Counted from the first letter of the stretch, positions 5,590-56,376 are shown. The stretch is 64,000 nt of DNA from Candidatus Babeliales bacterium (GCA_050179755.1 JBFXEV010000001.1:585994-649993); one strand, 5' to 3'. The notes: generated from the letters alone by a model not told the origin. Made by a program: numbers and translations.

Positions 5590-8441
5590 TTGGTGACTTC
5601 TTTCCAATCTTTTCCAGTACTTGTAGTCACTACAAGCGGCACATTCCAAGAGACTACGTTTTCCAATGTTTCACGGATTATTTTTTCTGTTTTTTGCGCT
5701 TGATCTTCTCGCACAGAAATTAATAGTTCGTCATGAATTTGCAAAATCATGTTTGCGTCTAGCTTATGCTCTTTAAAAGCCCGTTCAAGATTGATCATGC
5801 CGATTTTCATCAGTTCGGCTGCCGTGCCTTGTGCAACCGTGTTAATGGCTATGCGCGTAGCTTGTTCATAGAGTGATTTATTTTTTTCATGAATGCCTGA
5901 TACATAGCGGCGTCTGCCAAAGTGCGTGGTAACATACCCTTTTGCTTTTGTTTCTTCAATTATTTTATCCATCCATGCACTCACGCCAGGATATTGAGCA
6001 AAATACTTTTCTATATATATTTTTGCATCTTTAAATGGGATCTTAAGATCTTGAGAAAGTCCAAAAGGTGTTAGGCCATACAGGATACTAAAGTTAATAC
6101 GTTTGCCTATTTGACGTTGCTCGCTCGTTACTTTATCGCTCGTGGTATCAAATAAATTTGCAGCAGTTTTTTTGTGAATATCTTCATCATGCAAAAACGC
6201 ATCAAGTAAACTTTTATCTTGTGATAGATACGCAAGCACGCGCAATTCAATTTGTGAGTAATCGGCTGCAATAAATACGTGCCCAGGTTCTGGTTTGAAC
6301 GCCGAGCGCACTGAGTTTCCTTTGTATTCAAATGAATTTGTTGGCACGTTTTGCAAGTTAGGTTCTTGGCTTGAAAGTCTGCCAGTTGCCACAAGTGTTT
6401 GGCGGAACGTGGTGTGTATTTTGCCCGTTTCGGGATTTACATAAGAAGGCAAAGCTTCAATGTACGTGCTTTTGAGCTTAAATAATTCACGGTGCCGTAA
6501 GATGAGCGCTGGCACCGGGTGTAAATGTGCAAGGGCTTCTAGCACTTCTTGATCAGTTGAATAGCCAGTTTTTTTATCAGTTTGCTTTTGCGGAGGCAAT
6601 CGTAAATGTTCAAACAAGAGTATTGCAAGCTGACGCGGCGAGTTTAAATTAATGTCTTTATGCAAGGGGCCTACCAACGCATTAATTTTTTCTTTAATGA
6701 TTGTAAGCTCTTCATCAATTTTAACGTTTAGAGTTTTTAAAATCTCTGTATCAAGATTAATGCCACGGTACTCCATGTAGGTCAAAATATCAACGAGTGG
6801 AAACTCAATATCTTGGTAGAGTTTTGCCATATCTTGTTTAACGAGCGCGTCTACAAGAATAGGATATAATTGCCATGTTTGGTGCGCATCGCTGGCTGCA
6901 TATTCGGTGGCAAGTTCAAGAGGCACTTGTGCAAAGGTCTTAAAGCCGTTATTGATCACTGCTTCTTGAAAGCTAATCATAGGTTCGTTCAAAAAATATT
7001 CTGAAAGGTATTTAAGGCCATTGCGTTGCCAATCTTCTGTCACCAAGTGCGCTGCTAACAATGTGTCAAACACGAGCCCTTGCGGCATAATGCCGTAGTG
7101 CATAAAGGCGTGTTCGTCAAACTTGGCGTGATGCATGATTTTTTTAATGCTTGGATCTTCTAATATTTTTTTGAATGCAGCAAGCACCACGTCACGCGAG
7201 AGCTGGCGTTCGCCAGTGGTGTGCGCAAAGGGAATATAATAGGCAACTCCTTTTACGGTACATGCAGAAATACCCACCAAATGATTATAGAGCGGGTTTA
7301 GGCCAGTAAGTTCTGTATCAATAGCAACCAGTTTTTTTGTGTTAATTTCATGCACAAGCGCATCAAGCTTTTCTTGCGTATCAATCGTAATAAATTTGTA
7401 TCCCTTTGACTTGGAAAGCCATTCTTCTTTTCGCTCAGTCACCCCGGTAAGGCCTGCAATTTCTTTGACTAGCGAGGCAAATTCAAGTTTTTCAAACAAG
7501 GGGCGCGCTTTTGGCCAATACGTTGCATTAAATGCTAAATTTTCAAGTGTAACGCCGGTATCATATTCACGGAGTAAAAACAAATCACGGCTTAAGAATG
7601 CATTCTCTTTGTTTTCAATAAGAGCATTGCGTGTGCGATTTTTTTCAATTTTATCCAAATTTGCATAGGCATCTTCAAGTGAATCAAATTGTTGCGCAAG
7701 CTCGGTGGCTCCTTTTTCTCCAATACCTTTAACACCAGGAATATTATCTGAAGTATCGCCAAGTAATGCAAAATAAAACGGTAGTTTATGTAAGGCAAAT
7801 CCAAACCGTTCTTCCATTGCTTGGCGGTCATAAAATTTATCTTTAAATGAATCGTAGAGTACCACCTTGTCGCTAATGCATTGGCCCATATCTTTATCGG
7901 CAGTTACTAAAACAACTTGAAATCCTTGTTTTTCATACTCCCGTGCAAGTGAGCACATAAGATCATCTGCTTCTATACCAGGCGTTGCAATTTGATGGAG
8001 ACCAATAAGATCTGCAAATTCAATAATATGTTCTTTTTGGGTAAATAGATCGCTTGGTGGTGCTTGGCGTGTTGCTTTATAGTCCGGGAATATTTCATGG
8101 CGTACCGTTTTGCCTTTGCTATCCCATACCAGGCTCATGTACTGCGGCTGAAATTGCTTCATTAATTTTTGGATCATGCGGCAGAATGAATATACTGCTT
8201 GCACCGGCTCGCCGTGGATAGTATGGAGTGGGCGCATGCCATAGTAAGCGCGGTATAAATATGAGGAGCCATCGATTAAGAATATGGTTTTTTTAGGATC
8301 AAATTTCATGCCGTGTGTCTCGGGTAATTCGATTGAATCGCATAATGCGTCGGTATAAGTATTGTTAATAGGATACCCGCTATTCAGGGCAAAGACAAAT
8401 AAGGCAAGTAATAATGCTGCGAGTTTTTTTAAAATAATCAT
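5586..8441 (-). CDS. polA: DNA polymerase I (start 8441, or 8309 without the N-terminal extension)
   Basis: LIDGSSYLYRAYY, EADD, LLGDTSDNIPGVKGIG, AIDTE, TGRLSSQEPNLQN, ADYSQIELR, ILQIHDEL. Confidence 0.98.
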   Translation of the reverse strand: MIILKKLAALLLALFVFALNSGYPINNTYTDALCDSIELPETHGMKFDPKKTIFLIDGSSYLYRAYYGMRPLHTIHGEPVQAVYSFCRMIQKLMKQFQPQYMSLVWDSKGKTVRHEIFPDYKATRQAPPSDLFTQKEHIIEFADLIGLHQIATPGIEADDLMCSLAREYEKQGFQVVLVTADKDMGQCISDKVVLYDSFKDKFYDRQAMEERFGFALHKLPFYFALLGDTSDNIPGVKGIGEKGATELAQQFDSLEDAYANLDKIEKNRTRNALIENKENAFLSRDLFLLREYDTGVTLENLAFNATYWPKARPLFEKLEFASLVKEIAGLTGVTERKEEWLSKSKGYKFITIDTQEKLDALVHEINTKKLVAIDTELTGLNPLYNHLVGISACTVKGVAYYIPFAHTTGERQLSRDVVLAAFKKILEDPSIKKIMHHAKFDEHAFMHYGIMPQGLVFDTLLAAHLVTEDWQRNGLKYLSEYFLNEPMISFQEAVINNGFKTFAQVPLELATEYAASDAHQTWQLYPILVDALVKQDMAKLYQDIEFPLVDILTYMEYRGINLDTEILKTLNVKIDEELTIIKEKINALVGPLHKDINLNSPRQLAILLFEHLRLPPQKQTDKKTGYSTDQEVLEALAHLHPVPALILRHRELFKLKSTYIEALPSYVNPETGKIHTTFRQTLVATGRLSSQEPNLQNVPTNSFEYKGNSVRSAFKPEPGHVFIAADYSQIELRVLAYLSQDKSLLDAFLHDEDIHKKTAANLFDTTSDKVTSEQRQIGKRINFSILYGLTPFGLSQDLKIPFKDAKIYIEKYFAQYPGVSAWMDKIIEETKAKGYVTTHFGRRRYVSGIHEKNKSLYEQATRIAINTVAQGTAAELMKIGMINLERAFKEHKLDANMILQIHDELLISVREDQAQKTEKIIRETLENVVSWNVPLVVTTSTGKDWKEVTK

Positions 8442-9148
8442 TCAATTTTTGGTCTATTTTGATTGAGATTTGCGTTTATATGTTCTTTGTGATTAGGTAT
8501 GGTTTCGGGTGATAGTAGGGCAATTATGCGAGCGTGTTTTTTCTTAGATATACAATGTGATGTTGAAGCTTGTACTGCATGATCAATTGGACGGGCTTTG
8601 GACCATTCGTTTATTTTGCCACGACATTCTAGCACTTCTTTCGTAAGCACATCTGTTATGAATGCTAGGTGCTTTTCCACAATATCTTCGGGGGGTGTTT
8701 TTGGTAAAGACCGTATCAATGATTGTGGGATGGTCCAGAGCATTCGTTCGACCGCTCCTACATTGTTTTTACTTGCTGCATATTGCAGAGGCGTACCATG
8801 AAACACCAATTGAAGATGCTTTTTGCCCTTATGCATTGAAAATGATGCATCAATTTTAGCCCCCCGTGCTACAAGCTCAGAAATTAAATTTAGTCTATTC
8901 CAGGTAACAGCAGTAACAAGAGGTTGCACGAGTGTTTTTGGATCAAAGCCATCAACTTCTGCTCCTTCATCTATCAGTGTGAGTGCTCGTACAGTATTGC
9001 CATTTCGTATGGACTTTGCAAGTCGTTTGTTAAGTAGCGTTTGCCTTTGCTCTTTTGGTAATAATTGTAGAGGAATGCCATAATACATTGCATTAACGCG
9101 ACATCCACATATGAAGAATAGACTTATTAAAATATATTTGATATTCAT
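8438..9148 (-). CDS. Secreted ankyrin-repeat protein
   Basis: Signal peptide; PLVTAV..LVARGAKID and GTPLQYAASKNN. Confidence 0.8.
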   Translation of the reverse strand: MNIKYILISLFFICGCRVNAMYYGIPLQLLPKEQRQTLLNKRLAKSIRNGNTVRALTLIDEGAEVDGFDPKTLVQPLVTAVTWNRLNLISELVARGAKIDASFSMHKGKKHLQLVFHGTPLQYAASKNNVGAVERMLWTIPQSLIRSLPKTPPEDIVEKHLAFITDVLTKEVLECRGKINEWSKARPIDHAVQASTSHCISKKKHARIIALLSPETIPNHKEHINANLNQNRPKIE

Positions 9149-9176
9149 TTTTGTATTCCCTTGTTACACTTACAAT

Positions 9177-14050: not shown

Positions 14051-14686
14051 TTATGAGCCGCAACTTGGGTGTTTGTAACGAATGGTAGGATGAGTAATAG
14101 GTTCTTGTGCTGCAAATAAATGTTTATATTTTTTTGCAGCATAATCACGTGGCTTATTCCCGTGCATATCTTCTAATTCAAAATCAGGGTTATAGGGTGC
14201 GATAAAATCAAAAATGGCAATCAATGTTGTTTCATCAAAATGTTTTTCGCTTTGTTGTGCTAGTAAGTGAAGTGGTGATTGGCGTTCACTATCAAGTTCG
14301 TTTATTTTTGCTCCAGCTTCTAGCAATGCTATATAGATAAGTGGATTTGCTTGAACATCTTGTGTTGCAAGTCGTAGTAATGTTTGTCTGGTGTAAGCAT
14401 CTTGTTCTTGAAGCATAGTATAAGCTTCGTGAGACTTGGGATCTGCATTTAATTTATGATAGCATGTATGTTGTGCCCATTTTGGATGTGGTATGCGCGG
14501 CGCAGTACTTAGTGAGCGCATATGCAGCGTTGAAACAAGATTTGAATGAGGAGTTGCTGTTGAACTGTGGCGCGCAAGTGGTTGTGGTCTTAGTAAAGCG
14601 CTGATTCCTGCAAAGCGGCGCATTGCACATATGTTTGTAACGCTCGTGAATAATAATAGCATAATAATAATACGTAGATTCTTCAT
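14051..14686 (-). CDS. Secreted ankyrin-repeat protein
   Basis: LLEAGAKINELDSERQSPLHLLA, DMHGNKPRDYA; start at MKNL after a ggagagg RBS. Confidence 0.8.
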   Translation of the reverse strand: MKNLRIIIMLLLFTSVTNICAMRRFAGISALLRPQPLARHSSTATPHSNLVSTLHMRSLSTAPRIPHPKWAQHTCYHKLNADPKSHEAYTMLQEQDAYTRQTLLRLATQDVQANPLIYIALLEAGAKINELDSERQSPLHLLAQQSEKHFDETTLIAIFDFIAPYNPDFELEDMHGNKPRDYAAKKYKHLFAAQEPITHPTIRYKHPSCGS

Positions 14687-14761
14687 AACCTCTCCCATTT
14701 TGACAAAAAATAACCTTACATAGTTTAAGTGTAATTTTTTGGAGGCGAAATTATCAAGGGT

Positions 14762-15368: not shown

Positions 15369-17174
15369 TTACTTTTTCAATAATTTTCTTTCATTATCTT
15401 TTTTTAATAAATCTAAAATGGTTTCTATAGTACGGTTTTTTTCACGAGCTTGTGCAAGTCTTAGTTGGTGCGTATTGAAAACGGCATCGCTTGTAGTTGT
15501 TACTCCAGGCATAGGTAGCATTTCTTCAGCTAAATCTAATGGGGTTTTTCCTTTTGCAAGCACGGGTGCATTTTTATATGTTGGTCTATGCTCCAAAGAC
15601 GTATCTGTTGCATTATTAAACACTGATGCAGTACGTGCAAGGAGTACTTTAACCCATTCAAGTTGTTGTAAGCCTACCGCCAGATGCAGAGCACCAAAAC
15701 CTTCTTTGGTTCTTCTATTAGGATTCGCGTCATGATAAAAAAATATTAAAATCGCTATCTTGCGTTTGGCATCGGTACATGTAGATAAGAGTAACTCATA
15801 AAAAGGAGTCACCCCAAGCCTGTTTTGTATATTTGGATCTGCTCCAGCACTAAGCATGTGTTGGACTGCCTCCGAATTTGATTCCTCATATGTTTTTAAA
15901 AGAAAGTGAAAAGAAGTTTCACCTAGCCAATTTTGAGTATTAGGATTTGCTCTATGTTTGAGCAAAGTGAGTAGTAATTTATGGCGGAAGAAACAGAATG
16001 ATTCAAGTTCTGCATGCGGTCTAAACACATAATGTAAAGCAGTTTCTCCGCTCCCATTTTGACTATCTATCGGTACGCCATGTTCTATCAAAAGATCTAT
16101 TAGTTTAGGGCGCGTTTCTTGAAACACTCTATCAGAACTGTGATGTTTTATTGCGTAATGCAAAGCATTTTCTTTTTCTTTATTGCCAAGTAATGGATTG
16201 GCGCCCTGCTTGAGAAATAAAGTAACTTGCTTTAATAATTGGGATGCATCAAATTCATTTATTGGGGTACTTGCAAGTAATAAATGGAGCGGTGTTTCGC
16301 CATTGATATCTTGCGCATTCACCGTAGAGGTTGCCATTGGGTGTTTGAGCAATAATTCTGTGCTGCTGTAATCTCTAATTTGTACCGCATAATGTAATCG
16401 TGTTTTGCCCGTTTGCTTGTCTTGTGCAGTTATTGTTTTATTTTCGCAAAGTTGTTTGATCGCACCTTCAAAAACAGTGTGACTAGCAGCAAGTAATAAT
16501 TTTTTATCAATAATCGCAAGAGCTGGATTGTCCAGCGCCCTACAAAGCATAACATTGTATGGCAATCTTTGGGCATAATCGAGTGTAGTTTGTCCGGCAG
16601 TAGTTTCAATCATTGGATTTGCGTTATAGGTAAGGAGTAGCGTGGCAACCTTAAATTGTTGAGAAGCTTCAAATTCATTTGACGTGGTAAAGCTTACGGC
16701 AAAATGCAGTGCTGTTTCTCCAGTTCCATCTGCAATATCAATTAATCCAGGTGATTCTTGTAATAACTGTTCTATGCAGGTAGTTTCTTGTAGCCATGTT
16801 GCCAAATGGAGACGAGTTCTTCCATGTGGGTCTTGTGCATTTATTGATGTAGTTTGTATCAGATCTGCAACTGCTTGTTGCACGTTACTATCAGCAGCTG
16901 CACGCAGTAATCGAGCGTCAATTTGCGCAAGCATGCTCAATGGTTCCTGTACATCCATCCGCCGTTGCTCCTCCGGAGCTCCCGCTACGCCTAAGCTATA
17001 GCGTGGCCAGATGGCGTGATTGGTATCACGTTCTTCGGCAAGTTCCCAGCCTTCGCGTGAAGCTACGGCGGGCACGGCAGGATGAGCGGACCTTGGCCAA
17101 GTCGGATCCATTGCATATATGTTGTGCGCAAATTGCAGTGATATGCATAAGAAAAAAATATTTTTTAACTTCAT
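15369..17174 (-). CDS. Secreted ankyrin-repeat protein with repeat-derived N-terminal segment
   Basis: Many GETALH/GETPLH repeats; signal peptide; residues about 29-73 encoded by palindromic repeats. Confidence 0.92.
   Translation of the reverse strand: MKLKNIFFLCISLQFAHNIYAMDPTWPRSAHPAVPAVASREGWELAEERDTNHAIWPRYSLGVAGAPEEQRRMDVQEPLSMLAQIDARLLRAAADSNVQQAVADLIQTTSINAQDPHGRTRLHLATWLQETTCIEQLLQESPGLIDIADGTGETALHFAVSFTTSNEFEASQQFKVATLLLTYNANPMIETTAGQTTLDYAQRLPYNVMLCRALDNPALAIIDKKLLLAASHTVFEGAIKQLCENKTITAQDKQTGKTRLHYAVQIRDYSSTELLLKHPMATSTVNAQDINGETPLHLLLASTPINEFDASQLLKQVTLFLKQGANPLLGNKEKENALHYAIKHHSSDRVFQETRPKLIDLLIEHGVPIDSQNGSGETALHYVFRPHAELESFCFFRHKLLLTLLKHRANPNTQNWLGETSFHFLLKTYEESNSEAVQHMLSAGADPNIQNRLGVTPFYELLLSTCTDAKRKIAILIFFYHDANPNRRTKEGFGALHLAVGLQQLEWVKVLLARTASVFNNATDTSLEHRPTYKNAPVLAKGKTPLDLAEEMLPMPGVTTTSDAVFNTHQLRLAQAREKNRTIETILDLLKKDNERKLLKK
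16958..17090. repeat. Nested in-frame repeats: family B inside C, and family B inside A
   Basis: + strand: tccgccgttgctcctccggagct[30 nt B, 16981-17010]atggcg. Minus strand: tccgctcatcctg[33 nt B, 17045-17077]aacttgccgaag. Confidence 0.75.
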
Positions 17175-44139: not shown

Positions 44140-44169
44140 TTGGTATTCCCGTATTAATGCTGTTTTACA

Positions 44170-44340
44170 TTGGTTTATCGCCCTGGTGTCTTATTTGTAA
44201 CATAGATTCTAGAGTAGTAAGTTCTTCTATACCCTTTTTGTAGTTTTATTTCTGCAGAGACTAAGTAGTTTTACTCACTGCATGCTATATGCGTTTGTAA
44301 TGGTTGTGAAGGCGATTAAAATAATATATAACTTTTTCAT
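44170..44340 (-). pseudogene. Relic of a TPR-array paralog
   Basis: ATG overlaps the upstream TGA: MKKLYIILIAFTTITNAYSMQ-stop (44340-44275), then out-of-frame SAEIKLQKG resembling RANLQKG of 48460..49080. Confidence 0.6.
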
Positions 44341-44814: not shown

Positions 44815-46734
44815 TTAAAGATCAGTGCCGACTTCGGCCCTTTCTTTTTTAAGTAATAAATCTTTGCGAGCTTCTGATTCCGCGCTATCGCTATCACTAT
44901 CAGGTCTTTCCCTCTTGGTTCCTTGCTCATGAGGTTGCGCGGCTTGAACTGGTGGTAATTGAGCTTGAGCCGCTTCTAATTTATCAAGCTCTGCTTGTGC
45001 TTCTTCGCCAAAAAATGCATTTTGTTGCTGCAAGATGAGATTAAAGTAATGCCGTGCTTGATCCACTTGTCCAAGAGCGCGATATGATAAACCGAGGGCA
45101 AATAAGGTCCTATGTTTAAGGAAGCTGGATGCTTGTAGGCTTTGAGCTAAAAATTGTTTAAAATAAGGAATTGCTTTTTCATATTCGTGTAGATCCAAAT
45201 AAATTTCTCCTAAGTTTCGGATGCCTTCAAGTTGCCTGTTTTTATTAATATGTTGGTTGGCCAATTGTTCAAAATAGGCAATTGCCTTGAGAGGTTGATT
45301 TAAGTTATGACGATAAATAAAGCCTAAATCGTAAAGAGCGCTTAATTTGGCTCCTAAATTAATGCTTTGTTGCGCAGTTTCTTCTAAATATGGTATCGCC
45401 AGTTCAGATTGGTTAAGTGATGAGTATAGGTATTCTATTTGCTCGCGAGCTTTTATTTTGGTGTTGAGGGGGACACTCTCGTTTTGGGCAATAGTGATAA
45501 TTGTATTTAGTAGTAAAGAGAGCAGGTCTTGAGTTAAAACTTGCGGTTCAACTTTACCCAAATAAACTAAAGCTTGCGTGTGTTCTTGTTTAGCGACATA
45601 TATTTGACCTAATCTAATAAATGCTACTGCTCTCACATTGCGACTATTGTTTTGCGCCGTAGCTTGTTCAAAATATAGAGTAGCTTTTGGGTATTCTTTT
45701 TGATCAAAATAAAGTTCACCTAGGTTCAACAACGCCTTTGCTTTTGTAACGAGGTATGTATTTTGCGCTGCAGCTTGCTGTAGATAGAGGGTGGCTTTTT
45801 GGTAATCTTTTTGCTCGTAATATAGTTTACCGAGCATGAACAAACTACGTACTTTTTCGAAGAAATTGTCATTTTGCTGAATGGCTTGTTCAAGATACGG
45901 AATGGCTTTTAGTGGTTGCTTTAGATTTGAATATAGCAAACCTAACTGGCCCAGCGCATGTGCTTTTTGAGCAAGGTTTACATTTTGTTGAGCCACAAGT
46001 GTGTAATAAGGCATCGCTTGCAGCTCGGTTTTTTGTTCGTGAGCATATAAATCGCCAAGAAGATTTAAGAACTGAAATAATAAGGGTAATTTAGTTGGAT
46101 CATTGGGCAATTCGGATATAAGAGTATCGATCTGGGTATGCAGAAGAAATAAATTAGTTAAAGTTAAAACAGATTGCTGAGCTTCGACAGGGAATAAATC
46201 AACATCAGAGCCGATATGGGTCATTTCATGGCCTTCTGGATCTATGGTAAAGTAATTAATGCTTTGTATTCTTTGCTTAGTAAAGGGATCACGGAATGCG
46301 TCGGGTTCATGAAGGCGGCGATTGAAGGAGTATTTAGCTTTTTTTGTTGCCATATTATGTAATATTTGACCAAATAAAAACTTATTAAGGCCTGTTGCTT
46401 CATAATAGCTGTGAGAGATTGTAGTAATGTTTGTATTAGGATCTGTATATTCAGTAGTGACGACCGCTAAGATTAAGGGTACGCTATAGCGTGCTTTATC
46501 TTGTATTAACTCGCCAAATGGGATAAAGCGCACTGGCTCATCTTGCAATGTATTAAGATATTCAACGCCATTCTCTATTTTACCAGCATCGGCAGTGGTA
46601 ATGTTGGCTCCCTCAGGTAAATCTTGGATTTTAATGAATTGAGGAACGGCCTGCGGAGCATCCATGCCAAACAGTATTGACGCGGTGCCAAAAAAAATGA
46701 AAGTATTTACGTATTTTTGTATTTTAATCAACAT
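44815..46734 (-). CDS. Secreted multi-TPR protein
   Basis: Many repeats of type ALxxLGxLY..KAIPYLEQA; start uncertain. Confidence 0.9.
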   Translation of the reverse strand: MLIKIQKYVNTFIFFGTASILFGMDAPQAVPQFIKIQDLPEGANITTADAGKIENGVEYLNTLQDEPVRFIPFGELIQDKARYSVPLILAVVTTEYTDPNTNITTISHSYYEATGLNKFLFGQILHNMATKKAKYSFNRRLHEPDAFRDPFTKQRIQSINYFTIDPEGHEMTHIGSDVDLFPVEAQQSVLTLTNLFLLHTQIDTLISELPNDPTKLPLLFQFLNLLGDLYAHEQKTELQAMPYYTLVAQQNVNLAQKAHALGQLGLLYSNLKQPLKAIPYLEQAIQQNDNFFEKVRSLFMLGKLYYEQKDYQKATLYLQQAAAQNTYLVTKAKALLNLGELYFDQKEYPKATLYFEQATAQNNSRNVRAVAFIRLGQIYVAKQEHTQALVYLGKVEPQVLTQDLLSLLLNTIITIAQNESVPLNTKIKAREQIEYLYSSLNQSELAIPYLEETAQQSINLGAKLSALYDLGFIYRHNLNQPLKAIAYFEQLANQHINKNRQLEGIRNLGEIYLDLHEYEKAIPYFKQFLAQSLQASSFLKHRTLFALGLSYRALGQVDQARHYFNLILQQQNAFFGEEAQAELDKLEAAQAQLPPVQAAQPHEQGTKRERPDSDSDSAESEARKDLLLKKERAEVGTDL

Positions 46735-47440
46735 CGGCTTCACTTGCAGTCCTATCTTTTTTTATGATTAATTCTGAGCTACTTTCTTTATCAGTGCCAT
46801 CGCTATCAGTGCGTTCTCTTTTACTACCTTGTGCTTGTTGCGTGTCAAGCTGCGCTAATTCCATGAGCGCATTAAATCTTACTTTAAAATCACCTGTTTG
46901 TTCTAATGCACGCTTAAAATATTTCCGTGCTTTTTTTATTTTTCCTTGCGTTTTATATATTCTTGCAATGCTTAAGAGAGCATCAGCCTTTAGTGGCAAA
47001 TGAATATCTTGATCTATGATTTGTTTGTAATACTGTTTTGCATCTTGATAATTATTCATTGAAGCATAGATGGCGGCCAACTGATCAAGTGCCATAACTC
47101 TAATTAATGGTTCATCGTGTTGTAAAGCTGCCTGCCTAAAGTAGAATAGCGCGTTGGCTTGCTCACGTAAGATAAGGAATGATAACCCTAAGTTATAAGC
47201 TGCTATTGCGCTGGCATGAGGATCAACGCGTTGCGCAAACACTTGTTTAAAATATGGTATGGCTTCGTTATATTCTTTTTTATCGGCATGGCTTTTACCC
47301 GTATCGAGCAATGTGGCCACGTAAAGGATATCGAGCTTAGATTGTCCCTGGGATTTAGATTTCAGGGAGCTTTCCATGCTATAAAGCGGCACGAGCACGC
47401 TCATGCAAATCAGGGTAGATACTAGCTTCTTCATTGTCAC
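46724..47440 (-). CDS. Secreted TPR protein
   Basis: AAYNLG, ALDQLAAIY..AKQYY, ALLSIARIY..KARKYFKRAL. Confidence 0.88.
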   Translation of the reverse strand: MTMKKLVSTLICMSVLVPLYSMESSLKSKSQGQSKLDILYVATLLDTGKSHADKKEYNEAIPYFKQVFAQRVDPHASAIAAYNLGLSFLILREQANALFYFRQAALQHDEPLIRVMALDQLAAIYASMNNYQDAKQYYKQIIDQDIHLPLKADALLSIARIYKTQGKIKKARKYFKRALEQTGDFKVRFNALMELAQLDTQQAQGSKRERTDSDGTDKESSSELIIKKDRTASEADVD

Positions 47441-47590: not shown

Positions 47591-48025
47591 TTATTGAGAT
47601 TTATCTTTTACGTATGGGCTATTTTTTATATGCATTAAATTTTGGGCACCCTGAATTTTTGCTAATTCTGCGCGCGCACGGCGGCTTGCATAGGGAAAAT
47701 CATTCTGATTTGCTGCATAGTTTAAAAACGAGCGTGCTTTATCAAGTTTCTCTAAATTTACGTAAGCAATACCAAGTTCTATTGCAGCTTCAATTTTTAA
47801 GCGTAAATGGCCAGATTTTTGTGCGGCTTCTAAAAAAGGTATGGCTCCCAAGTAATCTTTTTCTCTTAATCGTAATTGACCTTCAATCGCATTTTGTGTA
47901 GAAACAGAGTAATCATTCTTTGCAAAATCATCTGCATCGTGAAAAGTAAGCGGTTTGTTTAATCTCATGCCATAAGTTGAGCAAACTCCAAATAATATTA
48001 AAAATGTTATACAAAATTTTTTCAA
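47591..48025 (-). CDS. Small secreted TPR protein
   Basis: GAIPFLEAA..AAIELGIAY..KARSFL; TTG start. Confidence 0.82.
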   Translation of the reverse strand: MKKFCITFLILFGVCSTYGMRLNKPLTFHDADDFAKNDYSVSTQNAIEGQLRLREKDYLGAIPFLEAAQKSGHLRLKIEAAIELGIAYVNLEKLDKARSFLNYAANQNDFPYASRRARAELAKIQGAQNLMHIKNSPYVKDKSQ

Positions 48026-48034: not shown

Positions 48035-48448
48035 TTATTGCTTTGGCGGTATTGGCTGCAAGAGCTGTATGCCTTGGGCTGCATCAAGTCGCGTTAATTG
48101 TTTTTGTGCAGCATCTTTTATATCTAAAAAGAAATTTTGCTCTGCAGCAGTAGTTAAATAGTCTCGAGCTAACATATCGTTACCTAATTTCGCATATATC
48201 AGGCCTAAATGTAATGCTGCAGCAAAATGTATCACCGCAAATTGAGGGTTGTTATATGCTGCCAATAAATAGGGAATAGCTTCTTGTTTCTTTTGTTGTA
48301 GTACAAGTTCGAGGCCTCTTGAAAGGTTTGATTGTGCTGCGTGCAACGTGTTGCTGGTTTGCACCTGAGATACTGGCTGTGGCCTATCCATACAGTACCC
48401 ATACGGTAGTGCAGAGAGTGTAATAAGAATTATTAATAGTTTTTTCAT
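48035..48448 (-). CDS. Small secreted TPR protein
   Basis: EAIPYL..AALHLGLIY..ARDYL. Confidence 0.82.
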   Translation of the reverse strand: MKKLLIILITLSALPYGYCMDRPQPVSQVQTSNTLHAAQSNLSRGLELVLQQKKQEAIPYLLAAYNNPQFAVIHFAAALHLGLIYAKLGNDMLARDYLTTAAEQNFFLDIKDAAQKQLTRLDAAQGIQLLQPIPPKQ

Positions 48449-48459: not shown

Positions 48460-49080
48460 TTATTGTGTTTGTTTGCCAATGTTCAGGCTTTGTAAAGCTT
48501 GTGCAGCATCAAGTCTATCCAATTCTTTTTGCGCAGCTAATTTTATGTCAGCAGGAGCAGATTTACTAGTTGCCCTTGTTAAGTAACCACGAGCTATTTC
48601 AATCTCACCCAATTTAAGATAAGCTCTACCTAAAAGGAAGGTCGCAGCAAAAAAAATGGGGGGATAAGGAATTTGAAAGCGGTGACCGTGATAAAGATCT
48701 TTCAGGAGTTCTATTGCTTTCTCAATATTTTGTTGTTCTAAATAGAATAGGGCTTGTTGTAATCTTTCTTCAGCAGCAGCAGCATTTTTACGATTTTCCT
48801 CGTTTCTTAACTGCAGCTCGATTGATTTATATTTCTTTGACTGTTCTACGTTATTTAATGAAGCGTACGCTCCGGCTAGATAGTGAGCAGCTACTTGTTT
48901 CATAATTGGGTCTGTTGATTCAAAAGCTTTTTCAAAAAAGCTTATTGCAAGGACCTTATTGTTTTGATCATATGCACTGATCCCTTTTTGTAGATTAGCA
49001 CGAGGGCTATCTGGCTTTCCTTGCATACCATATGCTGAATAAATGCTAAAGCATATTAAGAATAGTATTAATTTTTTCAT
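48460..49080 (-). CDS. Secreted TPR protein
   Basis: LAISFFEKAF, ATFLLGRAY..ARGYL; start MKKL after an aagga RBS. Confidence 0.82.
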   Translation of the reverse strand: MKKLILFLICFSIYSAYGMQGKPDSPRANLQKGISAYDQNNKVLAISFFEKAFESTDPIMKQVAAHYLAGAYASLNNVEQSKKYKSIELQLRNEENRKNAAAAEERLQQALFYLEQQNIEKAIELLKDLYHGHRFQIPYPPIFFAATFLLGRAYLKLGEIEIARGYLTRATSKSAPADIKLAAQKELDRLDAAQALQSLNIGKQTQ

Positions 49081-49127
49081 GAAGATCCTTTTTTTAAGCC
49101 TATTTAAAGGCATTCTTATCTACTTTT

Positions 49128-49492: not shown

Positions 49493-50392
49493 TTATGGGT
49501 GTTTAGCAAGCCATGCTTTGGCTGCGTTATACGCCCTTTCATTTACACTTTTGACATGCTCTTCTGCTGCGCATTCAAAATTAGCGCGTGCCAATAACTT
49601 CTTACCATCTCTTTGATACAATAAGCCCATTTGCACCCAAATATCTGCTTTATCACCCATTGCTTGTAGGAACCTCATGCCCTTTTTATAGTTTACTTCT
49701 GCTTCTTTAAATTGTTTTTGCGTGAATAAGGTATTGCCAAGTTCTTTATGCAATTGGCCGTAAAGTTGGGCAGCTTCTGGCGTTGCCTCTAATATTTGTT
49801 CTTTGTTGTTTACTGCTTGCAATAGTGCATTAACGCCACGCTCTAAATAGAGCTTAGATTGTGCCGCGTCAGTTGATCTGGTGCTTACACCTATCATATG
49901 GCATAATGGGGCAATAATTATAGGATGGCTTTCAATTGCAAGAGATTGTGTGCCGTAACTAATTGCTTGGGCTAGTTTACCTGATTCAAAGCATATTTTG
50001 GTCAGATTACGCAAAAGGGCTGCACGATGAGGCAAGCACACTTCTTTAGTGTTGATTTGTTCGAGTGCTTCTAAAACTTTTAGTGCATTTATATAATAAT
50101 TGAACGCCATTTCAACATTTTCTGGTGCTTTTGGTAAGCGATGCGCATGCAGATCGGCCAATGCTTGGTTGGCTTTATAGAGCTCATTTGTTGTAGTAGC
50201 TCTTTCAAGCACTATTTCAAATACTTCTTTAGCTTGCGCGTAACGACCCGCCGTATAATGTTCATCTGCCAAGGCAAGTGTTGCTGATTCTGTTCCGGCT
50301 TTCTTTAAGTTCGCGTGATTGTTAGGACCTTGATTCATGGCGCACAGATGTGCTCCTAAAGAAAATATAAGTGCATAAAGTAACGATTTCAT
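49493..50392 (-). CDS. Secreted TPR protein
   Basis: YAQAKEVFE, ELGNTLFTQKQFKEAE, ADIWVQMGLLY. Confidence 0.85.
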   Translation of the reverse strand: MKSLLYALIFSLGAHLCAMNQGPNNHANLKKAGTESATLALADEHYTAGRYAQAKEVFEIVLERATTTNELYKANQALADLHAHRLPKAPENVEMAFNYYINALKVLEALEQINTKEVCLPHRAALLRNLTKICFESGKLAQAISYGTQSLAIESHPIIIAPLCHMIGVSTRSTDAAQSKLYLERGVNALLQAVNNKEQILEATPEAAQLYGQLHKELGNTLFTQKQFKEAEVNYKKGMRFLQAMGDKADIWVQMGLLYQRDGKKLLARANFECAAEEHVKSVNERAYNAAKAWLAKHP

Positions 50393-50638: not shown

Positions 50639-52021
50639 ATGAAGCCATATCAAAAATCTTTGTTTATTTTTCGTAGAGACTTACGGCTATTCGATAATAC
50701 AGCCCTTATCAAAGCGCTTGAGGAAAGCGCGCTGGTGATTCCATGTTTTATATTTGATCCACGGCAAGTAACTGATGCCAATGCATTTAAAAGCACTAAC
50801 GCATTAGAATTTATGATTGAATCTCTTAAGGATTTGCACGACCAGCTTACAAAGCATGGTGGCAAGTTATATCTTTTTTATGGTGATCCGGCAGAGCTTA
50901 TAAAAAAACTAATTACGCAAGAAGAAATAGATGCCGTTTATGTAAATAAAGATTACACGCCATTTAGTATAGGTCGTGATGACAGTATTAAAAAGGTGTG
51001 TACGCATTATGATGTTGCCTTTGATTCATGCAAGGATGCTTTGCTTACTGAACCTTATGAAGTATTAACGCTTGGCAACGTGCCCTATTCCGTTTTTACA
51101 CCTTTTTTTAAAACCGCTTCAAAGATAACGGTAGCACATCCAAAAACCTTTCCCAAAATAAGTTCATTTTATAAGAAGCCTATCAAGTTTGCACAGTCAT
51201 CAACTATTTTTAAAAAAATAGTACCTCAAAAAAATCAGAATTTGTGGGTGCAAGGCGGCACGAGCAACGGCAAAAAAATTTTGCGCAATTTAAAAAAATT
51301 TAAGAATTATGCCAAAGAGCGCGACTACCCAGCTCTTGATGCCACAACGCATCTTTCTGCGCATAATAAATTTGGTACCATCTCAATTAGGCAAGTATAT
51401 CATGCTATTGCCGATCAACTTGGGAAAAATCACCCATTGATTACGCAACTCTATTGGCGCGATTTTTTTACACATGTGGGTTATCATTCACCATTTGTAT
51501 TTGGTGCGCCGTTTAAGCAAAAATATGAAAAATTAACGTGGAATACTAATAAAACAATTTTTGAGCGCTGGTGCACGGGAACTACTGGGTTTCCTATTGT
51601 GGATGCTGGCATGCGGCAGCTGAATGCAACGGGCTTTATGCACAATCGCGTGCGCATGATTGTGGGGTCATTTTTGGTTAAAGATCTGTTTATTAATTGG
51701 TTATGGGGAGAAAAATATTTTGCACAACAGTTAGTTGATTATGATCCTGCGGTTAATAATGGTAATTGGCAATGGGTGGCATCTACCGGGTGCGATTCAC
51801 AACCATATTTTAGAATTTTTAATCCATGGTTACAGCAAAAAAAGTTTGATGCTGATTGCATCTATATTAAACAATGGATTCCTGAACTTAATAAAATATC
51901 TTCCCAAGCTATTCATCGCTGGTATTCTAAGCATCAAGAGTATGACACTGAATATCCAAAACCAATGGTGGACCATGCAGCGCAGAGTACGATGGTTAAA
52001 GCGTTTTATAAAAAATTGTAG
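50639..52021 (+). CDS. phrB: Deoxyribodipyrimidine photolyase / cryptochrome family protein
   Basis: FRRDLRLFDNTAL, QLYWRDFF, GTTGFPIVDAGMRQL..TGFMHNRVRM, LVDYDPAVNNGNWQW, FRIFNP. Confidence 0.95.
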   Translation: MKPYQKSLFIFRRDLRLFDNTALIKALEESALVIPCFIFDPRQVTDANAFKSTNALEFMIESLKDLHDQLTKHGGKLYLFYGDPAELIKKLITQEEIDAVYVNKDYTPFSIGRDDSIKKVCTHYDVAFDSCKDALLTEPYEVLTLGNVPYSVFTPFFKTASKITVAHPKTFPKISSFYKKPIKFAQSSTIFKKIVPQKNQNLWVQGGTSNGKKILRNLKKFKNYAKERDYPALDATTHLSAHNKFGTISIRQVYHAIADQLGKNHPLITQLYWRDFFTHVGYHSPFVFGAPFKQKYEKLTWNTNKTIFERWCTGTTGFPIVDAGMRQLNATGFMHNRVRMIVGSFLVKDLFINWLWGEKYFAQQLVDYDPAVNNGNWQWVASTGCDSQPYFRIFNPWLQQKKFDADCIYIKQWIPELNKISSQAIHRWYSKHQEYDTEYPKPMVDHAAQSTMVKAFYKKL

Positions 52022-52976
52022 CACGGTTCTCTTTCTATTGTTTTATGGAATGACGTGCAGTGCCATGGAAGAGCACATTGCACCAGAGCCTAACTTTTGT
52101 GATATAGCTTTAATGGAATATATAACACAACAAGATCGCGCAAACGTGCGTGCTGTACTTCAGTGCCCAGTACATATCAATTTGGCGCATCCACACTATA
52201 ATGGCCACACGCCGCTGGCTGAAGCAGTTGCAACCGATAATGCTTCAATTGTTGATTTATTATTGGCACATCCTGAAATAGATCTAGATGCAGATGCTGG
52301 GCAAGGTTACCGGGCGCTACATATTGCCACAATGCAAGGGCAGGATAGTATGGTAAGAAAATTATGCGCGGCAGGTGCTTCGCTTGAAACGTTAAATGAA
52401 GATGGCGATACGCCATTACATATTGGATTTAGATATAGAAAACCAAAGACAGTGCGTATGCTTATAAGCACGGTTGCTACTAAAAAAATCGCAGCAGCTG
52501 CCAAAGGCATTGAAAAATTAATAATTCCTTTTTTACGTTGTTGCAAGAGGCATACACAAGAGGAGCCAAGAGGCGTGCTTGGCATGTTGCCAAGAGATAT
52601 ACGACTAATGTTATGTGGGTATTATGAACGAGCAATTATGGCTTTTGAAGCAGAGCAGCTTAGAGCTGGTTCAACCGCCCCTAGTGGCATATTTATTCCC
52701 ATAATTGAAAATCAACTTGTTCGTGTTACATCAGCGCTTGCGATGAAAAATGAACACGATTGGGTTCCCGAGCAATTATTATGGCATAATGATTCTGAAA
52801 CACCGTTGCTTTTAAATGCTGCCGACAAAGCTTGCATGCGTAATGCGATCATGCAGTATGTGCAAATAAAATATCAAGAAGTCAGTTTAGAGTCCAGACT
52901 CCATAATTCAAGACGATTGCAAAGCCCACCCATAGTAAATACGGTAGAAGAAGTAACGCAGCCCGCCAAGATGTAG
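51975..52976 (+). CDS. Secreted ankyrin-repeat protein with F-box-like segment
   Basis: GHTPLAEA, ALHIA, DGDTPLH; LGMLPRDIRLML; start uncertain. Confidence 0.82.
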   Translation: MQRRVRWLKRFIKNCSTVLFLLFYGMTCSAMEEHIAPEPNFCDIALMEYITQQDRANVRAVLQCPVHINLAHPHYNGHTPLAEAVATDNASIVDLLLAHPEIDLDADAGQGYRALHIATMQGQDSMVRKLCAAGASLETLNEDGDTPLHIGFRYRKPKTVRMLISTVATKKIAAAAKGIEKLIIPFLRCCKRHTQEEPRGVLGMLPRDIRLMLCGYYERAIMAFEAEQLRAGSTAPSGIFIPIIENQLVRVTSALAMKNEHDWVPEQLLWHNDSETPLLLNAADKACMRNAIMQYVQIKYQEVSLESRLHNSRRLQSPPIVNTVEEVTQPAKM

Positions 52977-53497: not shown

Positions 53498-54481
53498 ATG
53501 AAAGATTTTTGCAAATTGTTACTGGTTTTTTGGTTTCAGCTTGGTTCATTATGTGGAATGGAGGTTGAACAACCTGCAGCATTTCAACCAGATAGTTGGA
53601 TAACAGATCTTTTATCGCACCAAGTTCCTCCAGCATCTACTATTACTCCAAAAGAAGAACCTAAATTTCATGCATTATCTGTTTTTATGCAACAACTTAC
53701 CTATCACGATAGGTTGTTGTTTAAAAAGATACCTTGCAGCGCTGTGCATGAAATAGATAAACAAGTTGCTGCAGTAACTGCTCTTGCAGAAAAGAAAGTG
53801 TGCCAAGCAAAGCCTACGCATCAAATAATACTTGTGGGCGATGATGCTATGGACGGTACAACTCAGTTACTTTTTGTGAGTGCTGTTGAAGCATTGTTAA
53901 CTGTTGCTACAAAAAAAGGTTCAGCAGCGCAAAGATCTGGCTGGGTTTTTAAAGGTGAGTATGGTTTTTATATTTTGCATCCTTTGCATCTTGCGCTAAA
54001 GCATAATTTAATTGAATGTGCAGAAATATTAATAAAGAATGGTGTTGATTCTAATGCGCAAGATCATTTGGGCAGAGGGCCATTGCACGTAGTATCATTT
54101 CTTAAAGATGAAGATGCGCAAACTAAACTTGCAAAGCTTCTATGTTTTAAAGGCGGTGATTTAAATGGTGCAACTAAGCAAGGAATTACACCAATGGCTT
54201 CTGCCGTAGAAAGAAAAGCGCATAAGTTATTGGATTTTTTATTAGACCTAGGAGCAAACCCTAATAGTAATGTGGAAGCTGAGGCGGCTGGTAAAAAAAG
54301 TTTGCATGCAGTGGGTGTTTCTCCACTTTGGCTTGCATTATCACAAAGAGACATTATATCAGTTGGGTTGCTTTTAAAAAGAAGAGCAAAATTAAAAGCT
54401 GCAGAGCAAGTGGCCGCGCAGCTTATGCATGATAACGAACAAGATCAAAATTATAAAGTACTTCTTAAGAAGGCTCTATAA
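53498..54481 (+). CDS. Secreted ankyrin-repeat protein
   Basis: HPLHLAL, GRGPLH, GITPM, LLDLGANPN, VSPLWLA. Confidence 0.88.
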   Translation: MKDFCKLLLVFWFQLGSLCGMEVEQPAAFQPDSWITDLLSHQVPPASTITPKEEPKFHALSVFMQQLTYHDRLLFKKIPCSAVHEIDKQVAAVTALAEKKVCQAKPTHQIILVGDDAMDGTTQLLFVSAVEALLTVATKKGSAAQRSGWVFKGEYGFYILHPLHLALKHNLIECAEILIKNGVDSNAQDHLGRGPLHVVSFLKDEDAQTKLAKLLCFKGGDLNGATKQGITPMASAVERKAHKLLDFLLDLGANPNSNVEAEAAGKKSLHAVGVSPLWLALSQRDIISVGLLLKRRAKLKAAEQVAAQLMHDNEQDQNYKVLLKKAL

Positions 54482-54484: not shown

Positions 54485-55111
54485 TTATTTCTCTTTTTTC
54501 GTTTCTATTGTCTCAAGACTCATATCCACGAATTTATGTAAATCATTATAATCTTCATCGTCAGAAAGTTGCGATTTAGGAAGATATTGTTTACGCAATT
54601 CGTGTTTCTTTTTTTCTTCCGTTAATCGTTGTTCAAGTAATTCCAGAGTTTCTTGTTTTTCCGCTAGTCTAAGTGCACCTAATCGTTGCTCTATAATTGA
54701 TTTACTTGCAGCATCGGGTTGTATTTTAAGATGTTGCATGCCGAGCAATAAAGAAATAAATCGATTTGAGGATGATTCTTTAGCTGCTCTAGAAATTGCA
54801 TCTTCAAGAGTTCCTTGTAAAAGTGCCTTGCGCACAACGCCTGCATGTAACTCCATTGCATCTTGGTGCGCTTGACGCTCAGCCGCTCCTGCACCAAATT
54901 CTTGGTCAAGTCGGTTTAGCACAGTTGTTACAACGCCCGGCATTGAAGGTAGTAGATCACTTAATTGCCAATTATCATCTGCGCTGTTGCTTGCAGCTTC
55001 CGCTGCAGGGCTTACTGCGCGTGGTGATCCTGCGGCAGGCGGCCAGCATTGCATTGCACACGCGTTATTAATAGTGCTTGTGAGAATAACTAAATAGAGT
55101 ATTTTTTTCAT
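54485..55111 (-). CDS. Secreted hypothetical protein
   Basis: Signal peptide ending ACA-M; helical charged C-terminus. Confidence 0.75.
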   Translation of the reverse strand: MKKILYLVILTSTINNACAMQCWPPAAGSPRAVSPAAEAASNSADDNWQLSDLLPSMPGVVTTVLNRLDQEFGAGAAERQAHQDAMELHAGVVRKALLQGTLEDAISRAAKESSSNRFISLLLGMQHLKIQPDAASKSIIEQRLGALRLAEKQETLELLEQRLTEEKKKHELRKQYLPKSQLSDDEDYNDLHKFVDMSLETIETKKEK

Positions 55112-55125
55112 ATTTTTAACCTTTT

Positions 55126-56376
55126 TTATTTCTTGTTGCCGGTAGGAGCATTATTACTATTAGCTACTGTAGCAGTAGGTTGTTTATTTGTTGTAGGTGA
55201 GCGCCCCGCTTGTTGTTGTTGCGCTGCGGCCGCAGGTTGCGCAAGCCTTGCTGCAGCGGGTGATGCTTGAGCAGGTAATGCAGCAGCTTGCATGTGCGCT
55301 TGTTGAGCTTGTTGCGATTCAGCAATTAATTGAGCAGCAGCAGCTTTAGCAATTCCGGCAGCTTCAAGTTCTTGCACAAGAATTTGTTCTTGTTTTGCAT
55401 TGTATGCTTGTACTACATTAAGTTCACGTTGCATACGCTCTAATTCTTGATTCTTGAGCGCTAATTCATGTTGTTCTGCTTGCAATGCTAATGCAGCACG
55501 TTCTTGCTCTGCTTTTTGTGCTGCAAGTTGGGCGCTTCGTAGTGCCAACTCGTCTAATTGTGGCTGCAATGTTTGCTCGTCTTTGGTGATAGCTTCTAGC
55601 GCAGCTTGCGCGCGGGTTGTTTTTAGTTTTATTCTTGCTTTGGCATCTGCTACTTTTTTGCTATCTTCGCTTTTAGCATTGCCAAGCCTTTCAATATAAT
55701 CACAACTTTCTGCGCTACTAAGCATTGCTTGTTCTAAAAATTTAAATAATAGTTTTTGAGCAGTTGTTCCGAAAGTAACTTCGTCTGGTTGTTCTCGTAA
55801 TGCTGATACAAGGTCATTTGCTTCAGTTATTTTGCCGGAGAGCACTATTATTTCAGCAATTGTGTTTACTACCTCTTCTCGTAGATTAGCGTTACTAAGA
55901 TAATTTAAGAAGGTGCGGTTGGTAATATCTGGTGCTAATTGGCTAGGGTAAATCCGATACATTGATTTAAGTGCTCTAAAAAATAAAACAGAGCGTGCAT
56001 CAAGGGTGGATAGCCTTGTTTTTATGTGCTTATGAATTCTTTCAAGAACTAAAGTAGAAATAGGATATTGTGGTATAACGTCGTCAACAGCATCAAGTAT
56101 ATTGCTTGTTAACTGATTTTCTTTTAAATATCCTTTAGTAAATCCTCTATGCATCCTATGGAGTAACGTTTGTTTTCCGTTCTCACTAGCTTTATTCCAA
56201 TCCCCTCTTCTTATTTCATCAAATATAGAAGTTGGATTCAATTTATCAGCCGCTGAGTTATAGACGTTGCCTGCTGTACTCACCGCTAACTTTACAGTTC
56301 CAGTTACATAATCCATGGAAATAGCATTATGGAAAACGCCACACAACAAGGCACATGTTGCTATTTTTTTAAACAT
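55126..56376 (-). CDS. Secreted coiled-coil Ala/Gln-rich hypothetical protein
   Basis: Signal peptide; long A/Q/E/L heptad-like stretch; low-complexity tail. Confidence 0.78.
   Translation of the reverse strand: MFKKIATCALLCGVFHNAISMDYVTGTVKLAVSTAGNVYNSAADKLNPTSIFDEIRRGDWNKASENGKQTLLHRMHRGFTKGYLKENQLTSNILDAVDDVIPQYPISTLVLERIHKHIKTRLSTLDARSVLFFRALKSMYRIYPSQLAPDITNRTFLNYLSNANLREEVVNTIAEIIVLSGKITEANDLVSALREQPDEVTFGTTAQKLLFKFLEQAMLSSAESCDYIERLGNAKSEDSKKVADAKARIKLKTTRAQAALEAITKDEQTLQPQLDELALRSAQLAAQKAEQERAALALQAEQHELALKNQELERMQRELNVVQAYNAKQEQILVQELEAAGIAKAAAAQLIAESQQAQQAHMQAAALPAQASPAAARLAQPAAAAQQQQAGRSPTTNKQPTATVANSNNAPTGNKK

Follow-up and report, generated by a model that had tools for sequence, protein, structure and literature searches.

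A methionine directly after the predicted signal peptide cut site looks like a lineage-specific mark of effector-like proteins in a Babeliales bacterium

Classical Sec/signal peptidase I signal peptides combine a charged n-region, a normal hydrophobic core and small residues at positions -3 and -1 before the cut, and the residue directly after it (+1) is normally unconstrained, with Met being rare there. In the lipoprotein +2 rule (Lol avoidance) and the Bacteroidota lipoprotein export signal, residues after the cut set the compartment of the protein, and an acidic +2 belongs to the code. In PEXEL/RxLR, a signal peptide is combined with a short motif, and the new N-terminus x-E/Q/D marks hundreds of unrelated effectors for host delivery. 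In eukaryotic cells, an N-terminal Met is generally stabilising in the N-end rule, Met followed by Asp, Glu, Asn or Gln is the NatB substrate pattern, and a Met that stands before a large non-hydrophobic residue escapes trimming and is not among the known Arg/N-degrons. Cultured Dependentiae have large secretomes, and predicted signal peptides were reported on 79 of 126 ankyrin proteins of one species (PMC4378268, PMC6561590). Here we describe a Met at +1 (hereafter Met+1) in a 64,000-nucleotide stretch of a Candidatus Babeliales genome, referred to as the window, and in the genome around it. A preliminary description of the window had listed 18 proteins of unrelated families whose hydrophobic leader ends in a small residue followed by Met. 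It had read this as a putative effector signature, with the cut directly before a Met that is not the true start codon, and had expected enrichment over background and in ankyrin, TPR and orphan proteins relative to envelope proteins.

The window (G000:C1:585994-649993) belongs to a 1.525-Mb single-contig genome with 39% GC (G000), from a bacterium that we take to be an amoeba or protist parasite. By GatB, its two nearest named loci come from TM6/Dependentiae metagenome-assembled genomes (60-66% identity), in line with this placement in the phylum. Greedy calling of the longest open reading frames (ORFs) gave 1507 ORFs, and a home-made heuristic (not SignalP), which is blind to the +1 residue, predicted signal peptides in 641 of them (43%); all cut sites given here are predicted. 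As an outside control we used 78 gatB-centred loci from non-Dependentiae phyla (1.15 Mb, 1071 ORFs), in which the same ORF rule and heuristic found 141 signal peptides (13%). Earlier, looser heuristics (862 and 710 positives) were dropped. The share in G000 agrees with the putative signal peptides published for 44% of the coding sequences of another Dependentiae species (PMC6561590/PMC4378268).

Met occupies the predicted +1 position in 146 of the 641 signal peptides (23%), compared with a genome-wide Met frequency of 2.1%. The peak is sharp and places the predicted cuts directly before the Met: 13 Met fall at -2, 10 at +2 and 19-40 at the remaining nearby offsets, the extra Met at +3 (40) and +4 (34) mostly coming from heuristic cuts set a few residues too early. 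The control loci have a +1 Met in 2 of 141 signal peptides, and in 0 of 56 from loci with GC below 0.45; the enrichment over these outside controls is about 16-fold. A context-only test that imposes no cut-site rule found 126 Met at a hydrophobic-to-polar boundary, 92 of them preceded by A, G, C, T or S. A loose definition of such boundary Met gives 355 proteins, 244 with a small residue at -1; it over-calls, for example Met within the leaders of GMC oxidoreductases, and served only to clean the comparison set. From the strict and loose counts, the signature is found on roughly 10-16% of the proteome. Moreover, the motif [AGSC]M[DEQN] has a density of 4.75 per 1000 residues at positions 15-45 versus 0.82 deeper in proteins (5.8-fold). 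These data confirm that the +1 Met pattern is real, far beyond chance and genome-wide.

By all sequence criteria tried, the leaders before the Met are Sec-type signal peptides for signal peptidase I, with predicted cleavage. Their n-regions hold a mean of 1.53 Lys or Arg in the first eight residues (1.52 in non-Met signal peptides), the best eight-residue hydropathy of the h-region is 2.92 (3.00 in non-Met), and the mean leader length is 21.7 residues; length, charge and hydrophobicity are the same in the two sets. Over the 126 boundary Met, the residue at -1 is A in 44, G in 16, C in 14, T in 9 and S in 9; the residue at -3 is A, L, T, V, I or S in 100, and Y, Q, H or F stand at -2. Synonymous codons vary at -1 (GCA, GCT, GCC, GCG and others), and the constraint therefore works on the protein level. 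Tyr at -2 (18% of Met+1 vs 8% of non-Met sites) and Cys at -1 (11% vs 4%) are more frequent in the Met+1 set, and Pro from +2 to +12 differs modestly. The enzyme is also encoded, with two signal peptidase I genes (PF10502 above cut-off) at C1:1044179-1044904 (+) and 1506819-1507550 (-). What sets these leaders apart from the classical type is the +1 position itself, where Met is frequent, conserved and bound to a protein class.

Other leader types do not fit. All 18 window proteins have Met at +1, and a Cys at -1 lacks the [LVI][ASTVI][GAS]C frame of a lipobox for signal peptidase II. A type IV prepilin leader is ruled out by the position of the hydrophobic segment, which precedes the Met, and by the polar sequence after it. 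The Tat motif S/T-R-R-x-F-L-K is absent from all 18 leaders; RR occurs only in the protein at 51975 (MQRRVRW), where the rest of the motif is missing. A C-terminal co-signal was sought in the last 20 residues, which have no marked compositional difference between the Met+1 and non-Met sets. Two observations on Cys may be added. Over the 146 Met+1 leaders, Cys is 4-7-fold enriched at most positions from -8 to -1, and in 16 of them it occupies -1, an unusual choice for a signal peptidase I site. Additionally, a GH3 enzyme with the leader end ...VTAC before the Met is probably a lipoprotein with Met at +2, the one such case genome-wide.

On the sequence evidence, the +1 Met is not an initiation codon. 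The 16S rRNA tail is canonical (CCTCCTTT), and Shine-Dalgarno (SD) matches of at least four bases stand ahead of 67% of the 146 leader starts. Internal ATGs have one in just 6.8% of cases, a rate lower than the 17% before Met codons deep in genes; SD motifs precede 64% of the other signal-peptide genes and 53% of the non-signal-peptide genes. The base profile upstream of the internal ATGs contains no -10-like element of the kind expected for leaderless transcripts. The leader start codon is ATG in 124 of 146 cases, and Lys is the most frequent second residue. For five window proteins that were looked up in a public protein collection, the long form was present in 5/5 and the short form starting at the Met in 0/5. 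Hydrophobic extensions of another kind occur in the window. The longest ORF of PolA (5586-8441, -) opens with a signal-peptide-like stretch, MIILKKLAALLLALFVFA..., and has its 5'-3' exonuclease domain from residue 53; the longest ORF of PriA (9111-11141, +) carries a hydrophobic extension, ...FPCYTYN, before MFAKIRL. Both extensions are probably read-through of upstream T-rich DNA, so individual cases of a leader followed by Met can be artefacts.

The Met appears to be under purifying selection, judging from alignments with relatives. Between G000 and a 400-kb sample of a congeneric genome (G001) we found 204 orthologues as reciprocal best hits, with a median identity of 61%. Conservation of the Met was counted from alignments, since pairs anchored on the Met would be circular. 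G000 Met+1 proteins are involved in 26 of the 204 pairs, and the +1 Met is identical in 15 of these, whereas identity reaches 4-10 of 26 at flanking positions, 33 of 172 for the other Met of the same proteins and 38% over all residues. The +1 Met is thus kept about three times better than other Met residues (15/26 vs 33/172; Fisher p 8e-5). By eye, a boundary Met is kept in 17 of 26 pairs; it is lost to H, V, S and L, and one loss is in the M15 peptidase, the sole clear cell-wall enzyme among the Met+1 pairs. A deeper view comes from the orphan protein at 55126-56376, which has eight relatives among 1.84 billion representative proteins, six of which were fetched. Five are full-length homologues with 30-44% identity, and all of them keep a small residue, the cut and Met followed by Asp, Glu or Lys; the sixth begins inside the leader at ...S-ME (hyphens mark the predicted cut). 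For the two remaining relatives the matches begin at query residues 114 and 129.

The preliminary description was right that unrelated families are involved: the 146 mature sequences form 96 BLAST clusters, 85 of them singletons and nine of them pairs, with an ankyrin cluster of 34 and a WD40 cluster of 9 besides. The raw count is inflated by paralogue arrays of ankyrin, WD40 and TPR genes, some of them tandem, as with the seven TPR-type genes of the window and the five WD40 genes located at C1:403832-412712. Inheritance through a few expansions accounts for part of the signature, but not for most of it. The five WD40 proteins (545-607 amino acids, aa) have near-identical leaders, MLKKNILILLLGAVCGASSAFG, with M[D/E] after the cut, and WD40 genes also occur as pairs and triplets at C1:223509-226392 and 467253-473281. 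We considered and rejected a mobile leader cassette as the carrier of the signature, as just 8 of 10585 gene pairs share similar leader and upstream DNA. In two families the order of events can be read from relatives. Homologues of the PAF-AH-like esterase in G002, G012, G010, G005, G017, G009 and G001 have a signal peptide or anchor before FPKPTG.YAVG, and their +1 residue is G, S or I; Met occurs in G000 only. The Macro-domain protein has the Met in the G000/G001 orthologue pair, and in its paralogues and relatives (G014, G019, G016) S, L, P, K or I comes after the signal peptide. In both families (2/2) the Met was therefore gained on a pre-existing signal peptide, and it occurs only in this genus.

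The proteins that carry the Met differ in class from those that do not. The class sample consisted of the window and 20 tiles of G000 totalling 400 kb, and it gave 95 Met-set and 133 non-Met signal-peptide proteins. The Met-set proteins outside the window, scanned with Pfam at E<=1e-4, number 82, and the non-Met set was reduced to 57 by removing 42 loose-boundary-Met proteins, those with scores below 9, and window members already scanned. The 82 comprise Ank 18, WD40 11, TPR 1, LRR 1, other domains 5 and no family 46; the five other domains are Macro, DUF6624, Peptidase_M15_4, PAF-AH_p_II and GH3 (the probable lipoprotein with Cys at +1). The 13 window members add Ank 2, TPR 4 and none 7. Among the 57 non-Met proteins, three have Ank and none another repeat, 21 have enzyme or envelope domains and 33 have none; the 21 include thioredoxins, FKBP, an ABC substrate-binding protein and an outer-membrane beta-barrel, as well as M23, M48, M49 and C11 peptidases, SPOR, FtsW and H+-PPase. 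Repeat proteins (Ank/WD40/TPR/LRR) thus make up 31/82 of the Met set vs 3/57 of the non-Met set (Fisher p 6e-6), and enzymes or envelope domains 5/82 vs 21/57 (Fisher p 1e-5). The expected contrast with envelope proteins therefore held for repeat proteins and failed for orphans (46/82 vs 33/57). On this distribution, the +1 Met looks like an undescribed mark of secreted effectors.

The residues that follow the Met are also biased. At the position after the +1 Met (n=146), D/E/N/Q stand in 98 proteins (D/E alone in 77), small residues in 8 and L/I/F/W/Y in 12. After the true initiator Met of 581 non-signal-peptide proteins the corresponding counts are 127, 192 and 133, the initiator context in G000 being led by K, N, S, I, A and L. 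The clean non-Met signal peptides (n=233) have these three residue groups at +2 in 65, 94 and 50 cases. Pro is enriched 2-3.5-fold at +3 to +7 of the Met+1 proteins. The Met+1 set as a whole thus has the NatB-type sequence pattern, Met then D/E/N/Q and not a small or bulky hydrophobic residue, and the scarcity of small (8/146) and hydrophobic (12/146) residues fits the reading as a stable Met N-terminus. In 149 of the 233 non-Met proteins, the +1 residue belongs to the classes that are destabilising in eukaryotes.

The signature is not shared evenly among relatives. The 40 other genomes drawn from the phylum all belong to the same order as G000. Met+1 was counted in samples of 20-400 kb per genome, which are small and local. 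In G001, of the same genus, 42/173 signal peptides have Met+1. The other counts are 20/165 in G019, 5/35 in G033, 5/31 in G016, 3/20 in G049, 3/26 in G002, 1/10 in G015, 3/32 in G003, 3/57 in G010, 2/39 in G006, 2/36 in G050, 2/44 in G018, 1/25 in G009, 1/32 in G011, 1/39 in G013, 0/15 in G004, 0/34 in G007, 0/17 in G005, 0/16 in G031 and 0/5 in G008. In the repeat proteins of G001 and G033 that were scored as having another +1 residue, the Met mostly lies a few residues past the predicted site. Signal-peptide ankyrins in the G050, G006, G007, G002 and G015 samples have G, V, Q, A, E, G and K at +1 (Met in 0/7), so the Met is no general requirement of such proteins. The patchy counts and the Met-less ankyrins point to a lineage-restricted innovation that is not shared by all Dependentiae.

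A second paralogue of signal peptidase I (LepB) was tried as the reader of Met+1 and rejected: a blind prediction from copy number failed for G004 (0/15), G007 (0/34) and G018 (2/44), which have two copies each. In a LepB tree the duplications are lineage-specific and independent (the G000/G001 genus, G019, G016, G018). Within one clade of 17 LepB sequences, the duplicated lineages G000/G001, G019, G016 and G002 have at least 12% Met+1 and seven single-copy lineages 0-9%, a comparison made post hoc; in the other clade, two copies occur in genomes that lack the signature.

The preliminary description had proposed two roles for the Met, namely that Sec export leaves an end which looks native in the host cytosol, or that the Met marks the protein for sorting in a second secretion step, and our data are consistent with either. 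We tentatively favour mimicry of a host N-terminus, placing it slightly ahead of a sorting mark. Met+1 proteins would be made with their leader from the upstream, SD-preceded start, exported by Sec and cut just before the Met. The mature N-terminus would then be Met followed by a large, non-hydrophobic residue, and its behaviour outside the bacterium would be the selected property. In an effector delivered to the host, this N-terminus would resemble an unprocessed eukaryotic cytosolic one; it should resist methionine aminopeptidase, avoid both the Arg/N-degron and the Met-hydrophobic degron and fit NatB, and such a degron-free end may give the effector a longer life in the host. The likeness to the eukaryotic N-degron and NatB rules is drawn here from the sequence pattern, which 98 of the 146 proteins have in common with them. 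We rank mimicry first because the Met is kept, small and hydrophobic residues are avoided at +2, the pattern is of NatB type, and periplasmic proteins freely use destabilising +1 residues. A precedent is an exported bacterial toxin whose N-terminal residue was reported to alter its potency in host cells (PMC2518864).

Several points weigh against mimicry. Cleavage, export and host location are predictions, with cut sites taken from our own heuristic. The signature is strong in the genus, intermediate in G019, G016 and G033 and near background in G011, G013, G007 and G004, and a universal host benefit should be more widespread than this. Ala, Ser, Thr and Gly at +1 are equally non-destabilising, so the choice of Met itself is not explained. 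NatB works on nascent chains, which makes acetylation of a delivered protein doubtful, and acidic residues right after a Sec cut are favoured anyway. Finally, orphans are as common without the Met as with it, and since 34 ankyrin and 9 WD40 sequences fall in single clusters, the counts are not independent events.

Alternatively, Met-[Asp/Glu], perhaps together with the Pro-rich stretch, may be a sorting mark read in the periplasm by a lineage-specific factor, which would pass the proteins to a second, outer-membrane step (a type II-like secretin or vesicles) while others stay in the envelope. We regard this as possible but doubtful. It predicts the split between repeat proteins and envelope enzymes equally well, its patchy, lineage-restricted spread suits bacterial machinery better than a universal host pathway, and the coupling of D/E/N/Q at +2 (98/146) with Pro at +3 to +7 resembles a short linear motif. 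Type II components were reported in all TM6 genomes studied in one survey (PMC4776705), and G000 has two secretin genes (C1:499870 and 504582), but secretins are reported throughout the phylum and so do not follow the signature. We found no candidate reader, and the two possible partners that were tried (LepB copy number and an exported GNAT) do not co-vary with the signature; type II substrates are not known to carry a linear N-terminal signal, and the C-terminal 20 residues are compositionally alike in both sets. The lipoprotein +2 rule, the Bacteroidota lipoprotein export signal and Plasmodium PEXEL are precedents for such a mark. By analogy, the Met+1 feature would work like these post-cleavage sorting codes without being a member of them: the lipoprotein rules act on a lipidated Cys+1 after signal peptidase II, whereas Met+1 follows a signal peptidase I-type site and its sorting is putative; PEXEL/RxLR belongs to the eukaryotic secretory pathway, with a dedicated protease, N-acetylation and a motif downstream, whereas here the motif is the cut site itself and the system bacterial. 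In its strongest form, a small residue, the cut and Met-[Asp/Glu] would be a two-residue host-targeting code, exposed by signal peptidase I and used, through a putative reader, to send some 150-240 otherwise unrelated proteins from periplasm to host in a subset of Babeliales, as a counterpart of PEXEL; this, too, we consider rather unlikely. A simpler proposal, in which Met at P1' is favoured by one of the duplicated signal peptidases I, or tunes the rate or timing of cleavage, and has no later role, is improbable. The two PF10502 genes in G000, the correlation within the 17-sequence LepB clade and the greater share of Tyr at -2 and Cys at -1 agree with it, but that correlation is post hoc, the blind copy-number prediction failed for three genomes, and the duplications, being lineage-specific, leave no common specialised clade. 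Moreover, the same cell evidently also cleaves non-Met sites whose +1 residues are of many kinds, and the proposal leaves unexplained why small and hydrophobic residues are scarce at +2.

The remaining explanations give the Met a role, past or present, in initiation, and all are less probable still. Were the internal ATG a second initiation site, yielding a leaderless cytoplasmic form beside the secreted one, its strict conservation would be expected, as would residues after the Met that are unlike those of a typical cut site. Such a dual start is quite improbable, because the SD rate before the internal ATGs is below the deep-gene level, no -10-like signal accompanies them, D/E after the Met (77/146) is unlike the initiator context of G000, and an internal start has no need of an exact place behind a -3/-1 site. 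The Met could also be a fossil start, left without function when signal peptides were added ahead of cytoplasmic genes; the eukaryote-like repeat proteins, which account for many of the Met+1 set, could have lacked a signal peptide when they were acquired, and the share of signal-peptide-bearing ORFs (about 43%) suggests frequent gain. This is very unlikely in view of the Met-less signal peptides or anchors in homologues of 2/2 families, the threefold better conservation of the Met, its precise +1 placement at a -3/-1 site, and a following residue unlike the initiator context. That the Met is simply the real start and the leader an annotation artefact, T-rich upstream DNA included in the longest ORF, is exactly what PriA exemplifies, but as a general account it is hardly credible: the SD placement, the 124/146 ATG leader starts, the -3/-1 grammar with varied codons, leaders in frame across orthologues and distant homologues, the long form in all five public calls and the mere 2/141 in controls under the same ORF rule all contradict it.

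Taken together, the +1 Met is a strong, lineage-specific variant of the cut site that marks effector-like proteins, by their sequences, and is apparently unpublished. Full-text searches, with supplements and subscription-only papers outside their scope, returned no description of a +1 Met rule. The Dependentiae secretome papers concern the same signal-peptide ankyrins, and their accessible text does not contain the word methionine or describe such a rule (PMC4378268, PMC6561590). Should the Met prove to be a signal for sorting or mimicry, it would constitute a new rule of bacterial protein secretion. A mark that separates host-directed from envelope proteins would allow cheap effector prediction, including for about 85 singleton orphans, and would provide a mutable two-residue handle on effector stability in the host or on a second secretion step; to our knowledge, no cultured Dependentiae species is genetically tractable. 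The mark also calls for caution in annotation and in the use of signal-peptide predictors whose training sets came from other phyla.

In the window, all 18 leader-Met sites of the preliminary description were found at their ORFs, each with a hydrophobic leader, A, G, S or C at -1 and then an ATG, which lies 18-31 codons into the ORF (Table 1). Its tally of 12/18 for Met-D/E/N/Q was correct on recount, and its comparators do lack the +1 Met: the protein at 5201 has ACA-GD, the GMC oxidoreductases ALA-RT and AFA-QT, the M16 peptidase INA-ST, and Pal a lipobox-like ALGGC.

Table 1. Window proteins with Met directly after the predicted cut site (positions in the window; leader end, last residues before the cut)
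Position	Strand	Protein	Leader end	Met codon	Met and next residue	Further information
8438..9148	-	weak-ankyrin protein	...CRVNA	9086-9088	MY	Met is residue 21
14051..14698	-	orphan	...TNICA	14621-14623	MR	
15369..17174	-	ankyrin protein, 601 aa	...HNIYA	17109-17111	MD	public collection: long form yes, short form no
30443..30853	+	orphan	...GQMYA	30494-30496	ME	
36223..36426	-	orphan, 67 aa	...PSIMA	36358-36360	MK	
43945..44139	-	TTG-started ORF, 64 aa, possibly decayed gene	...QTLLC	44065-44067	MK	
44275..44340	-	relic, 21 codons	...TNAYS		MQ	19-residue leader, MQ, stop
44337..44792	-	weak-TPR protein	...KSVQG	44724-44726	MG	
44815..46743	-	TPR + DUF5092 protein, 642 aa	...SILFG	46663-46665	MD	
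46724..47440	-	TPR protein	...VPLYS	47375-47377	ME	
47591..48025	-	weak-TPR protein	...CSTYG	47966-47968	MR	
48035..48448	-	orphan within TPR array	...PYGYC	48389-48391	MD	public collection: long form yes, short form no
48460..49113	-	TPR protein	...YSAYG	49024-49026	MQ	
49493..50392	-	TPR protein	...AHLCA	50336-50338	MN	best G001 match ...ELSG-MQ
51975..52976	+	mature part ankyrin-like by eye only	...MTCSA	52065-52067	ME	
53498..54481	+	ankyrin protein	...GSLCG	53558-53560	ME	
54485..55111	-	orphan	...NNACA	55052-55054	MQ	G001 orthologue ...SMLA-MD
55126..56376	-	orphan, 416 aa	...HNAIS	56314-56316	MD	

The start of the protein at 51975 lies inside a longer ORF of the gene list. Near the TPR array, the leader-only relic of 21 codons (in the stretch 43945-44340) and the two tiny leader-bearing ORFs (64 aa, and 67 aa at 36223-36426) suggest quick birth and decay of these genes.

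Some exported proteins without the Met are also worth recording. Four GMC-oxidoreductase paralogues of 737-908 aa lie in tandem at window positions 19631-30234 (-). They have a long, near-identical leader that ends ...TPYMALA-RTD or ...YMAFA-QTD and are predicted to be exported flavoenzymes. Elsewhere in the genome, the neighbouring paralogues at C1:432017-433888 and 434865-436946 have an identical signal peptide, MKIKHLALLWLFVFG, followed by QTQ, and one of the two has a C-terminal Ntox35 domain (Pfam, bacterial toxin 35). A signal-peptide-bearing fusion at window positions 3751-5097 (+) joins a GNAT acetyltransferase (Acetyltransf_8) to an M78/IrrE-like peptidase domain. This exported GNAT was considered as a modifier of the N-terminus and rejected, as its distribution in 21 genomes does not track the signature. 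Each half of the fusion is also present as several separate paralogues in both G000 and G001.

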